From a virus (lineage: Duplodnaviria > Heunggongvirae > Uroviricota > Caudoviricetes): 64,000 nt of DNA. A program made the position numbers and the translations under genes. Location of the stretch: IMG/VR virus record IMGVR_UViG_3300035516_000805; one strand, given 5' to 3'. Shown here one piece after another: positions 60,217-63,770 of the stretch (the first letter of the stretch is position 1; every line of letters starts with the position of its first letter). Under the pieces are notes generated by a model. That model ran no database searches. It was not told where the DNA came from and saw only the letters and a program-made list of their open reading frames with translations.

Positions 60217-61266
60217 ATGAATAGTATTAAAGAATTGAAACAAAAATACAATGTCACTACCAAACAAATTAGTGAATTTCTTGGAATTCCACTAAGAACA
60301 TTGCAAAACTGGGAGAATGGCTCTAGGGAACCGGCGGAATATCTTCCAAAATTAATAGATAATAATTTATCTATGCTTTTAAAAACAAATAAAAAATCAA
60401 CAGAATTAGTTTCAAATTCAAATATTCTTGCAGATGAAAACATTAACCGTATTCTTAAAAAAGACTTTGATACATTAACAAAAGAAGATATTCATGCAAT
60501 TAATCTTTTTTATCATTATCAAATGTTAAGTGAAATAAAACGTAAAGATAAGGGTGGAATTTACGGCTTTACTCAACGTAAATTAGCATATAATTCGAGT
60601 AAAATGGAAGGTAATCGTTTAACAGAAAATGATACAGCTACGTTATTTGAAACAGGTATAATACCGGATGGGGAATACCGTTCAAAAGATATTGAAGAAA
60701 TGCGTGGACATTTTGTAATGTTCAATAATGCTGTAAATGGATTTTATGACCAATTAACTGAAGAAATGATTAAAAAATATCATTATGACTTACAATGTGG
60801 TGTTTTTGAATTTTTAGCAAATGGTTATGTACCGGGAGAGTATAAAAGACGAGTAAATATGGTAAGTAATATTACAACATCATCTCCTGAAAATGTACAA
60901 CGAGATATGCAGCTTTTATTGAGTAACTATCACAGTGAAACAAATATGGATGTATTAGAAAAAATAACAATTTTTCATAGCAAATATGAAAATATTCATC
61001 CGTTTCAAGATGGCAATGGCAGAACAGGTCGTATGATATTATTTAAGGAAGGCTTCACACAGGATACTTTGCCGATTATCATTAACGATGAACGTAAAAA
61101 AGCTTATAGAGATACTTTAAATTTGTCTCAAAAGCAAAATGAATACCAGCCATTGATTGATTATATGAGGGATTGTCAATTTGAATTTTACAAAATTTTG
61201 CAAGAATTTTTATATGACCATAAAATTATATTAAATAATGAAGAAATAGATATTAATAAAGAATAG
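60217..61266 (+). CDS. HTH-Fic fusion protein (Fic/Doc family AMPylase-like)
   Basis: N-terminal XRE-like HTH; Fic motif HPFQDGNGRTGR. Confidence 0.75.
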   Translation: MNSIKELKQKYNVTTKQISEFLGIPLRTLQNWENGSREPAEYLPKLIDNNLSMLLKTNKKSTELVSNSNILADENINRILKKDFDTLTKEDIHAINLFYHYQMLSEIKRKDKGGIYGFTQRKLAYNSSKMEGNRLTENDTATLFETGIIPDGEYRSKDIEEMRGHFVMFNNAVNGFYDQLTEEMIKKYHYDLQCGVFEFLANGYVPGEYKRRVNMVSNITTSSPENVQRDMQLLLSNYHSETNMDVLEKITIFHSKYENIHPFQDGNGRTGRMILFKEGFTQDTLPIIINDERKKAYRDTLNLSQKQNEYQPLIDYMRDCQFEFYKILQEFLYDHKIILNNEEIDINKE

Positions 61267-61331
61267 TGTTTTACTACGAATTCTAAAGAATTTGTAGTTT
61301 TCATCGAATTTTTATCTTAATAAAAATTCGA

Positions 61332-61372
61332 TTTTACATTATTAATAGTAGAGAATAAAATCTCTACTATTT
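61332..61372 (+). promoter_or_regulatory. class II motif + hairpin
   Basis: gattttacattattaatagtagagaataaaatctctactattttttt. Confidence 0.5.
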
Positions 61373-61395
61373 TTTTAATTTAAGGGGGATGTCTT

Positions 61396-61593
61396 GTGAG
61401 CCATTTAACAAATAAAATTCGATTGGAACGGGAGAAAAATAATCTAAAAAGAGCCACAAAGGTAGAATTCAATACAGGTACGAGGGATATGGGATATAAA
61501 AGCAATAATGATAGAAAAGAAGCTGGATTTATACAATCTTACGGCAATTTTGATGATTATTTACAAAAAGAAATAAGAAAATATGAAAGGTAA
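61396..61593 (+). CDS. hypothetical protein
   Basis: GTG/ATG-start 65-aa ORF; RBS AAGGGGGA. Confidence 0.4.
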   Translation: MSHLTNKIRLEREKNNLKRATKVEFNTGTRDMGYKSNNDRKEAGFIQSYGNFDDYLQKEIRKYER

Positions 61594-61707
61594 GATTACA
61601 AGTAAGATTACAAGTAAAAGTATTAGTATTGACCTTTTATTTTTACAAATGTATATTAATACTATATTAGGTAATATTTTTCATATCAACAATAATGAGG
61701 TATTCCA

Positions 61708-62061
61708 ATGGATTTAGATTTTGATGTTTTAATGAAAAATACAATATTAGTTCACGTTGACATTAAGGATAATACTGTCAATGTCACATATTATGAAAAA
61801 ACTCCATTAGCACCCTTTCAAATGGAAAATGTAAATATTAAGACTGTTAATGATTTCTTTGAAAGACGCTGTTTTGATATTAATAGACCGGATAAAGCAT
61901 TTTTATTAGAATGTTTAGGACTGGACTATTATAATCCATTTGAAATTGTAAAGAAAACACATGGATTTTTACAAGATGACTTTATCTGGGTACGTTTTGA
62001 AGGAGAAGATTTAAGTTGGGAGGATGTAAGAAGTGAATTTACAGAATTATCGGATAGATAA
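61708..62061 (+). CDS. HipS-like (HipA N-terminal subdomain-like) small protein
   Basis: 117 aa; overlaps the downstream kinase start; weak resemblance to the HipA N-domain (FFERR...LLECLGLD...GFLQDDF). Confidence 0.45.
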   Translation: MDLDFDVLMKNTILVHVDIKDNTVNVTYYEKTPLAPFQMENVNIKTVNDFFERRCFDINRPDKAFLLECLGLDYYNPFEIVKKTHGFLQDDFIWVRFEGEDLSWEDVRSEFTELSDR

Positions 62062-62836
62062 GAAATATGCCGTTTTAACAACTACATCTTCCATAGGTTC
62101 CCAGTTAAAATTTAAAAAGGATAATTATTGGTATAAATGCGATAACGTTGGAAATGAAGGATTAGCTGAACAGTTAGTTTCCGATATGTTACAATTTTCA
62201 AATATTAATAATTATTTATCATATGAAAGATGTCTTATAAATGGGAGAAAAGGATGCCGTTCATTGTCTTTTTTACAAAGTAATGAACAACTGATAACGT
62301 TTAATAATTTGTATAAAAATACACATTTTAACTCTATTGTTGAAGATATTACAAAAATATCTTCATTTGAGGACAGATTTGATTTTATTGTAGATTTCAT
62401 CAAAAATATTGCCGGAATTGACTGTACTCAGTATTTATATGATAATATTGCCATAGATATGATAATAAAAAATCCGGATAGACATTTTAATAATTTAGCT
62501 TTGATTGTAAATAAAACCGGAAATTTTCGCTGCGCACCGGTTTTTGATAACGGTCAAGGTTTAGGTCAAAATTTTACAATAACTCCGCCAGATTTAACAA
62601 TACAAGAGAAAATGGAACGTTTAGTAGCTAATACATTTTGCGGAAACTTTGAACAGCAGTTCTTAATTGCTCAAAATAAAGAAATAATACCACTTATGAT
62701 TGATTATGACAATTTTTTTGCTTATTTAAACGAACAATATGAAAATAATATCGCAAAAGAGTTTTTACTGACTTCGCTGAATCAATATAAAGATATTTTT
62801 GATGAGAAAATAATTCAACTGACTGAAAGGGAATAA
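62033..62836 (+). CDS. HipT/HipA-like Ser/Thr kinase (canonical catalytic motif)
   Basis: Gly-rich loop SSIGSQLKF (compare SLSGVQPK), catalytic loop NPDRHFNNLAL (D-x-H-x-x-N), APVFDNG. Confidence 0.65.
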   Translation: MNLQNYRIDKKYAVLTTTSSIGSQLKFKKDNYWYKCDNVGNEGLAEQLVSDMLQFSNINNYLSYERCLINGRKGCRSLSFLQSNEQLITFNNLYKNTHFNSIVEDITKISSFEDRFDFIVDFIKNIAGIDCTQYLYDNIAIDMIIKNPDRHFNNLALIVNKTGNFRCAPVFDNGQGLGQNFTITPPDLTIQEKMERLVANTFCGNFEQQFLIAQNKEIIPLMIDYDNFFAYLNEQYENNIAKEFLLTSLNQYKDIFDEKIIQLTERE

Positions 62837-62840
62837 TTCT

Positions 62841-63770
62841 ATGGATTTATGGGACGAGTTTGAAGATAATCGAATATTTGAAGATAATAGAGAATATAGC
62901 GTAGATGAAATTCCTGTTAATATTGGAAAATGGTTGTCTTATATGCCTTATCATGATATAGAACAGTTAAAACTGCAGCGAGAAAATATTTTAAGAGTTC
63001 CTTTATTGAATAACTATGGAAGAATAGGCTTTATTTTGTCAAAAAATATTGATATGCTAGAGCAGTATTTACAAGATGTATCTTCTAAAGTCCGTATTGA
63101 AAATACCCAAACAGTATTAGAAACAGAAGTCTATTATACTTCTAAGATTGAAGGTGCAAAGACTACATTAATCCGTACGCAGGCAATCCACAATGGAAGT
63201 CCTATTAGAGAAGATAATAAATACAGTGAAGCAATGATAAAGGGTAATTTTGAAGCTGTTAAATTATTAAATCTTTATGGGAATAAATTAAATGAAGCTA
63301 TTTTATATAAAATTTGGGATACTTTGACTAAAGACTGCAGGGATAATAGGCATATACAAGGAAAATTTTACCGAAATGGTGAAATTACTGTAACAGATTC
63401 AAACTTTCAAAGTGTATCTGTAAGTGAACTTTACGAATCAATGAATTTGTTTTTAGACTTTTATAATGGTCCAATCTTACATGACAGACCCTTTATAAAG
63501 AGCTGCATAATTCATTTTGCATTTGAAACGATTCATCCTTTTTGTGACGGAAATGGAAGACTTGGAAGGTTATTAATGAATAATTATCTGATAAAACAGG
63601 GAATTGAATCGTGTAGAGCCGTATCGTTTTCTCAACAGATAGACAAAAACAGAGGTCTATATGATGCAGCATTTATTGATGGGGAAAACAGAAATAATGA
63701 CTGCACACCTTTTGTAGAATATATGTTGGATATTATGGCAAAATCTTATTTGTCTGCATTAAAAGTATAA
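62841..63770 (+). CDS. Fic-domain protein
   Basis: Fic motif HPFCDGNGRLGR; start 5 nt after the kinase stop. Confidence 0.75.
   Translation: MDLWDEFEDNRIFEDNREYSVDEIPVNIGKWLSYMPYHDIEQLKLQRENILRVPLLNNYGRIGFILSKNIDMLEQYLQDVSSKVRIENTQTVLETEVYYTSKIEGAKTTLIRTQAIHNGSPIREDNKYSEAMIKGNFEAVKLLNLYGNKLNEAILYKIWDTLTKDCRDNRHIQGKFYRNGEITVTDSNFQSVSVSELYESMNLFLDFYNGPILHDRPFIKSCIIHFAFETIHPFCDGNGRLGRLLMNNYLIKQGIESCRAVSFSQQIDKNRGLYDAAFIDGENRNNDCTPFVEYMLDIMAKSYLSALKV

Follow-up and report, generated by a model that had tools for sequence, protein, structure and literature searches.

Split kinases of the HipA superfamily are represented by the HipBST systems of Escherichia coli O127 and Legionella pneumophila, in which a small protein with the fold of HipA N-subdomain 1 (HipS) is encoded 5′ of a kinase (HipT) that is without this subdomain; in both of these characterised systems HipS is the antitoxin (PMC10627512, PMC9325769). 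The survey of Hip kinases by Gerdes et al. (2021) lists ten gene organisations; one of them, hipJS, has 2 members. The serine/threonine kinase CtkA (JHP0940) of Helicobacter pylori is carried by the element ICEHptfs3, at a variable locus of which ctkA and two fic genes serve as exchangeable, independent cargo (PMC5536186, PMC12443045). CtkA, PZ39 and Fic of this element have in common a basic C-terminal tail of the KRRR type, and ctkA and fic are regarded as conjugative-element cargo and candidate substrates of a type IV secretion system (T4SS) (PMC5536186). SoFic, finally, is an abortive-infection Fic defence reported to work either alone or together with a small antitoxin encoded downstream (PMC12249575). 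Here, we analyze a locus in a stretch of 64,000 nucleotides (the window) of the IMG/VR virus record IMGVR_UViG_3300035516_000805, in which a HipS-like protein, a short kinase of the HipA superfamily and two Fic proteins, one of them (Fic-309) directly 3′ of the kinase and the other (HTH-Fic) fused to a helix-turn-helix (HTH) domain, are encoded side by side. We conclude, with a probability of about 0.65, that three separate modules, the split-kinase pair, Fic-309 and HTH-Fic, adjoin one another among the cargo genes of a plasmid-like mobile element.

The locus resembles HipBST in that the gene 5′ of a kinase without HipA N-subdomain 1 codes for a small protein with the fold of that subdomain, in the position of the Gly-rich loop close to the kinase N-terminus and in the overlap of the two genes. 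Unlike HipBST, however, the transcription unit has no separate HipB (HTH) first cistron, the HTH of the relatives being part of the HipS-like protein instead; in structure the kinase is nearer to CtkA than to HipT, and it falls below the Pfam HipA_C threshold; and the sequence of the HipS-like protein does not match Couple_hipA. With the hipJS and hipIN modules (clade XI short Hip kinases; PADLOC PDC-M03) it shares a two-gene layout without a separate HTH gene, a short core kinase (about 280-320 amino acids) with a HipS-like partner, and a match of the kinase to PDC-M03A. The kinase-then-HipS order of hipJS is found only in relatives from Eisenbergiella and Alkalihalophilus, whereas in the window and in most relatives the HipS-like gene lies 5′ of the kinase; the window module also has no HIRAN domain. 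None of the ten organisations in that survey is an HTH-HipS fusion 5′ of a short kinase, and the taxa (Lachnospiraceae, Eubacterium, Butyrivibrio) and accessions of the family described here do not occur in the portion of its Table S1 that was examined. The window kinase differs from CtkA as well: the two kinases are 12% identical, the window kinase has no basic C-terminal tail of the sort proposed as a T4SS signal in CtkA, and no HipS-like partner of CtkA has been described.

The 267-residue kinase carries the motifs SIGSQLKF, NPDRHFNNL and APVFDNG, with the Gly-rich loop at residues 19-26, the catalytic loop at D149-R-H-x-x-N154 and the Mg site at D172-N-G. Across 26 homologues G22, Q24, K26, R150, H151, N154, N173 and G174 are invariant, and D149 and D172 nearly so, the exception being a single copy (P0017, in locus L008) to which we return below. 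The match to Pfam HipA_C (PF07804) has an expectation value (E) of 3.3e-5, but its 24.1 bits lie under the gathering score of 30.5; the NCBIfam YjjJ model gives 15.5 bits and PADLOC PDC-M03A 47.7 bits (E 3.5e-13). Against the sequences in the Protein Data Bank, a phmmer search with the kinase sequence alone returned nothing meaningful, and CtkA, the closest structure, was found only with the family profile. The analysis supports the assignment of the protein as a short, CtkA-like kinase of the HipA superfamily, with the HipA/CtkA fold and intact catalytic motifs. That it is a frameshifted pseudogene of a full-length HipA can be rejected, for the short length and the gene overlap are kept across ~100 loci. 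One homologue of 358 amino acids (P0013) has an additional PF13306 (leucine-rich-repeat-like) domain, a rare fused architecture.

The 117-residue protein encoded ahead of the kinase matches nothing in Pfam or NCBIfam, and the PADLOC PDC-M03B model gives only a weak match among the window proteins (E 0.005 over 43 residues). Comparison of folds nevertheless supports a HipS-like protein, that is, the fold of HipS and of HipA N-subdomain 1. The motifs IVKKTHG and W94-x-R-F-E are invariant. The first-pass annotation of this DNA, made from its letters and open reading frames (ORFs), was right to call this protein HipS-like on weak features and to describe the kinase by its HipA catalytic loop, Mg site and Gly-loop; of the profile matches it looked to, HipA_C was obtained below threshold and Couple_hipA was not obtained.

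Evidence that the two proteins belong together comes from their relatives. In a sample of 80 species-level genomes, mostly of Lachnospiraceae and other Clostridia with some of Treponema and Erysipelotrichaceae, a HipS-like ORF lies directly 5′ of the kinase in 75, usually overlapping it. The reversed order, kinase then HipS-like gene, occurs on Eisenbergiella chromosomes and on the Alkalihalophilus conjugative plasmid pBpOF4-02. In a natural fusion of 376 amino acids (P0235) residues 4-109 are HipS-like and residues 110-360 make up the kinase, and since this domain boundary falls at the split point, the window pair is a true split. Three architectures of the family are thus known: a split pair, a form with a fused HTH and a single chain. 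An N-terminal extension of at least 60 amino acids precedes the HipS-like domain in 48 of the 75 loci; it proved to be an XRE-type HTH in 6 of 10 tested cases, and a domain of this type is usually the mark of an antitoxin that regulates its own expression. A second class of partner, of ~230-243 amino acids (L033, L034, L035, L040, L047, L052, L055), has an extension of ~120-130 amino acids without a Pfam match; in L035 it includes a second, partial match to the HipS-like hidden Markov model (HMM), which may be a duplicated domain. At 50% identity the HipS-like domain family forms 1,227 clusters, of which 576 have E ≤ 1e-10. Most members sit on chromosomal-looking contigs, paired with an HTH-HipS-like protein, and in RefSeq the Lachnospira eligens pair is named 'helix-turn-helix domain-containing protein' and 'hypothetical protein'. 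The pair is a real two-gene split-kinase module of toxin-antitoxin (TA)-like form, belonging to a large family that is unrecognised by current annotation; it represents a large and apparently undescribed branch of the Hip-type split-kinase systems.

The way in which this module decays is also informative. Loci L006 and L008 are syntenic, but L008 is without ~1.05 kb containing the HipS-like gene, and its kinase, although 88% identical to that of L006, reads NPNRH and FNNG (D149N, D172N); among 94 family members this copy alone has changes at these two positions. Elsewhere the HipS-like gene is kept beside a truncated kinase (L014) or the kinase is frameshifted (L016, L083). Such patterns fit what one would expect of a kinase activity that is harmful without its partner, although they are not proof of it, and the co-loss in L008 points to toxicity within the carrier cell. 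What has been observed for the module comprises the folds, the catalytic motifs, the conserved overlapping pairing in both orders, the fused form and this co-loss pattern. We suggest that the CtkA-like protein would be a growth-arresting serine/threonine kinase and that the HipS-like protein would bind to it where N-subdomain 1 lies in HipA, keeping it inactive, as HipS does with HipT, a kinase that phosphorylates TrpS in HipBST. If a phage infected the cell or the plasmid disappeared from it, this inhibition would be lost and the freed kinase would presumably phosphorylate an essential host protein, and the outcome would be addiction or abortive infection.

The two Fic proteins are of a self-sufficient type. 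Both are canonical, as the first-pass annotation had it for Fic-309: HPFCDGNGRLGR in Fic-309 and HPFQDGNGRTGR in HTH-Fic fit the active-site motif HxFx(D/E)GNGRxxR, Pfam Fic is significant for each (4.8e-16 and 3.3e-16, respectively; ~60 bits each), and the upstream protein of 349 amino acids does combine Fic with an XRE-type HTH (HTH_3, 1.2e-5) in one chain. Fic-309 has, N-terminal to its Fic core, the inhibitory motif T100-S-K-I-E104-G105, and HTH-Fic has SSKMEG at the corresponding place; all of 28 Fic-309 homologues keep E104, G105 and the Fic motif, whose conservation T100 follows with at least 90%. By these motifs, both are class II Fic proteins, with the (S/T)xxxE(G/N) inhibitory helix in their own chain, and no partner is needed for their regulation. 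In these features, and in strong PADLOC matches to SoFic (E 8.1e-34) for Fic-309 and to PDC-S04 (1.1e-71, spanning 8-240 of 244 model positions) for HTH-Fic, they resemble SoFic and the other class II Fic AMPylases. Fic-309, which has 406 homologues of ~300 amino acids, differs from SoFic in its score with the NCBIfam equivalog (51.8 bits, cut-off 550) and in its co-transcription with a kinase pair. Both proteins match, at the level of sequence models, single-gene defences, and PADLOC distributes the components over three systems: SoFic, PDC-S04 and, for the kinase, PDC-M03A. The SoFic-like Fic-309 and the PDC-S04-like HTH-Fic would probably each act alone, as AMPylating defence or cargo genes.

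It had been proposed in the first-pass annotation that Fic-309 is the third partner of the split kinase and takes the place of HipB. The distribution of the genes does not bear this out. Fic-motif ORFs occur within 5 kb of the kinase in only 4 of the 80 loci (L026, L030, L033 and, as a fragment, L037), and these four are of different subtypes and share no more than 38% identity with either Fic protein of the window. The closest syntenic relative (L007), whose kinase is 68% identical and which has the same SNF2...SNase synteny, has neither Fic gene, and the HTH that would correspond to HipB is commonly fused to the HipS-like domain. Conversely, the sampled contexts of Fic-309 homologues in L178, L179 and L183 contain neither a kinase nor a HipS-like gene. 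A metagenome scan with the Fic profile, informative as background only, gave, among the matches listed (mostly distant Fic proteins of 26-46% identity), no kinase or HipS-like match in any of 80 loci. Adjacency of Fic and HipA-like kinases does recur sporadically, and the simplest reading is that both reside in hot spots where mobile elements carry cargo or defence genes. An obligate role of Fic-309 as third component of the pair is not supported as a conserved architecture; what we see here is local co-transcription of neighbouring self-sufficient modules.

The co-transcription is probable from the layout of the locus (table 1), for which the ORF limits given in the first-pass annotation all held. 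The HipS-like and kinase genes overlap by 29 nucleotides, and the kinase starts at a GTG with GGAGG 9 nucleotides 5′ of it; from the kinase stop to the ATG of Fic-309 there are 4 nucleotides without overlap, a Shine-Dalgarno-like AAGGGA lying within the kinase 3′ end. Translational coupling, which had been claimed for all three ORFs, is therefore well founded at the first junction but only plausible at the second. The 12-mer TTTTACATTATT has 21 exact copies in the window and, with up to one mismatch, 40, against 7.0 ± 2.8 expected. All are intergenic, lie before gene starts in the strand of the downstream gene and are often followed by a hairpin and T-run (exact sites include 959, 4546, 8984, 33070, 52709, 54195, 61332 and 63796, and on the minus strand 264 and 4376); the motif is present also in the related element of L007 and absent from the other kinase or Fic loci. 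It marks the starts of gene cassettes and is probably an element-specific promoter read by sigma factors that the element itself encodes (window 54238-55266). Because copies with hairpins bound the interval and there are none inside it (no TTTTACATTATT between 61332 and 63796, no terminator between kinase and Fic-309), the 65-residue ORF, the HipS-like gene, the kinase and Fic-309 are probably a single transcription unit, with HTH-Fic in the preceding one. In L007 a TTTTACATTATT copy lies directly 3′ of the kinase and the motif-bounded unit stops there; hence the HipS-like/kinase pair behaves as a sub-cassette that is placed in different units.

Table 1. Features of the locus (positions in the window).
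Feature	Position	Strand	Remarks
HTH-Fic, 349 aa	60217..61266	+	N-terminal XRE-type HTH and class II Fic domain; in preceding transcription unit
Promoter-like 12-mer TTTTACATTATT (61332-61343), then hairpin and T-run (61344-61371)	61332..61371	+	boundary of transcription units
65-aa ORF	61396..61593	+	first gene of unit
44-aa ORF	61583-61717		overlies promoter-like site and tandem repeat; probably no gene
Tandem repeat GTAAGATTACAA and sigma-70-like site	61590..61657	+	candidate operator and host-type promoter before HipS-like gene
HipS-like protein, 117 aa	61708..62061	+	no HTH; putative antitoxin/regulator of kinase
Short HipA-superfamily (CtkA-like) Ser/Thr kinase, 267 aa	62033..62836	+	putative toxin/effector
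Fic-309, 309 aa	62841..63770	+	class II, SoFic-like; last gene of unit
Next TTTTACATTATT copy (63796-63807), then hairpin and T-run (63809-63837)	63796..63837	+	end of unit

Some smaller elements of the unit may be mentioned. The 65-residue ORF is 47% identical over 53 amino acids (E 5e-11) to L007:6843-7052, which is placed after the kinase in that locus; it has no match in Pfam, NCBIfam or PADLOC and no HTH match. Ahead of the HipS-like gene a perfect 12-bp tandem repeat (GTAAGATTACAA, x2.3, at 61590-61617) directly precedes a sigma-70-like site (TTGACC-17-TATATT, 61629-61657), and the repeat may be an operator of this module, in which the HipS-like protein has no HTH. The 44-residue ORF across this region was rejected as a component, having no homologue in any fetched locus and covering both sites. 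The preceding unit, which closes with HTH-Fic, is opened by a 240-residue protein (58651-59373) with a DUF1281_C / Api92-like ferredoxin-like domain (E 2e-7).

The window as a whole is AT-rich (~27% GC) and nearly all of its genes share one strand. Among its products are RecD-like helicases, a ParB-like protein, sigma factors, an SNF2 helicase and a nuclease, and the source contig has a Mob_Pre relaxase downstream of the window; this gene content fits a plasmid-like or conjugative element. Just past the window end, 3′ of Fic-309 (L001:12160-14103), lie a 93-residue ORF, an SNase-domain protein and a 156-residue fragment with OrfB_IS605 / Cas12f-like TNB domains, a truncated TnpB; the relaxase is farther 3′, on the opposite strand. 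The locus gave zero megablast matches in phage and plasmid collections, neither the kinase profile nor Fic-309 brought up a confirmed relative in scans of viral contigs, and an Rfam search of the region at E ≤ 0.1 found no family of structured RNA.

Several points weigh against the interpretation as three separate modules with a HipS-like inhibitor in the first of them. Toxicity and neutralisation in the split-kinase family are predictions from sequence and fold. The nearest solved relative, CtkA, is described as a secreted effector rather than a TA toxin, and the homologous N-subdomain 1 of HipA belongs to the active toxin and is no inhibitor; fused forms exist in the split-kinase family as well. 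The HipS-like protein of the window has no HTH, which leaves autoregulation unexplained, and intact kinases in L009-L011, L020 and L070 have no detectable HipS-like neighbour. As regards the independence of Fic-309, it follows the kinase by 4 nucleotides with neither a terminator nor a promoter motif between them, and three of the four Fic genes near kinase modules directly adjoin the module (p about 0.03 by a rough estimate that assumes even scatter over ~10 flanking gene positions). In L175-L177, moreover, a full-length HipA-like kinase of 436 amino acids comes immediately after a Fic-309 orthologue of 64% identity, with no gap between them. This kinase (L175:5946-7256; HipA_C 22 bits, PDC-M03A 1e-15) belongs to a different family from that of the window. 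Its N-terminus could not be accepted as a clear HipS-like domain (hhalign probability 24%), and a second Fic paralogue of 346 amino acids and a protein of 217 lie upstream.

A bolder statement can be made, namely that Fic and HipA/CtkA-like kinases are functionally linked on mobile elements, the co-transcribed HipS-like/kinase/Fic-309 unit being a cassette for defence or addiction with two post-translational modifications, and, separately, that the HTH-HipS-like/kinase pair (at least 576 clusters at 50% identity) is an undescribed Hip-type TA or defence family; as a whole we consider it improbable, though less so than any of the alternatives that follow. A functional link, if there is any, may consist in a shared host pathway or in one enzyme modifying or licensing the other.

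Somewhat less probable is the idea that the kinase and Fic are effectors of the mobile element, employed in host takeover, counter-defence or transfer into a recipient or host cell, and not toxins of addiction or abortive infection, with the HipS-like protein as a chaperone or safety catch in the donor. The structural proximity to CtkA and the occurrence of ctkA and fic as conjugative-element cargo (PMC5536186) accord with it, as do the ParB-like, RecD-like, SNF2, sigma-factor and nuclease genes of the window and the Mob_Pre gene downstream, and some relatives of the kinase without a HipS-like gene are found in phage-like arrays of small ORFs. One such array (L011) contains two genes for 273-residue proteins ~2.3 kb apart (2526-3347 and 5666-6487) without a HipS-like neighbour; the first is a kinase homologue (P0037) and the second fell below the kinase HMM threshold in the census. 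Most family members, however, are on chromosomal-looking contigs with an HTH-HipS-like partner, as is usual in TA or defence loci, neither the kinase (...IIQLTERE) nor Fic-309 (...YLSALKV) ends in a basic KRRR-type tail like that of CtkA, and the co-loss in L008 points to toxicity in the carrier cell itself.

We judge it quite unlikely that the HipS-like protein, the kinase and Fic-309 constitute one three-component system in which Fic replaces HipB and phosphorylation is coupled to AMPylation. Its attractions are the single motif-bounded unit with the 4-nucleotide gap and Shine-Dalgarno-like sequence, the frequency with which nearby Fic genes directly adjoin the module, and the return of Fic/HipA-like kinase adjacency in L175-L177, L030, L033 and the fragment of L037. 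But Fic is absent within 5 kb at 76 of 80 kinase loci and from L007, and the adjacency is sporadic; the kinase-adjacent Fic proteins differ in subtype, and the L175 kinase is of another family. Furthermore, Fic-309 homologues stand alone elsewhere, both Fic proteins are self-inhibited class II enzymes and match single-gene defence models, and the family already has a HipB-equivalent HTH, fused to the HipS-like domain.

It is equally doubtful that the kinase, rather than being inhibited by the HipS-like protein, requires it as a structural or activating subunit which rebuilds a two-domain HipA-like enzyme: N-subdomain 1 does lie within the active HipA toxin, natural fusions such as P0235 exist and gene overlap favours 1:1 co-synthesis, but HipS is the antitoxin in both characterised split systems (PMC10627512, PMC9325769), a fused HTH is typical of antitoxins, and a kinase inactive without its partner would give no selection for the isosteric D-to-N change of both Asp residues in the otherwise intact L008 kinase.

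The interpretation that we prefer, three neighbouring modules of which the first is a split kinase with its predicted inhibitor, would extend the Hip kinase TA family to a divergent CtkA-like branch, abundantly represented among gut Clostridia and Treponema, that has been missed by the Pfam and NCBIfam models and by RefSeq annotation. The notion of a tripartite kinase/Fic system is thereby corrected, and what remains of it is a low-frequency association of Fic with HipA-like kinases on mobile elements, which is testable. The preferred interpretation also ties the virulence-associated CtkA of H. pylori to a HipS-regulated family and suggests how such kinases may be kept in check.

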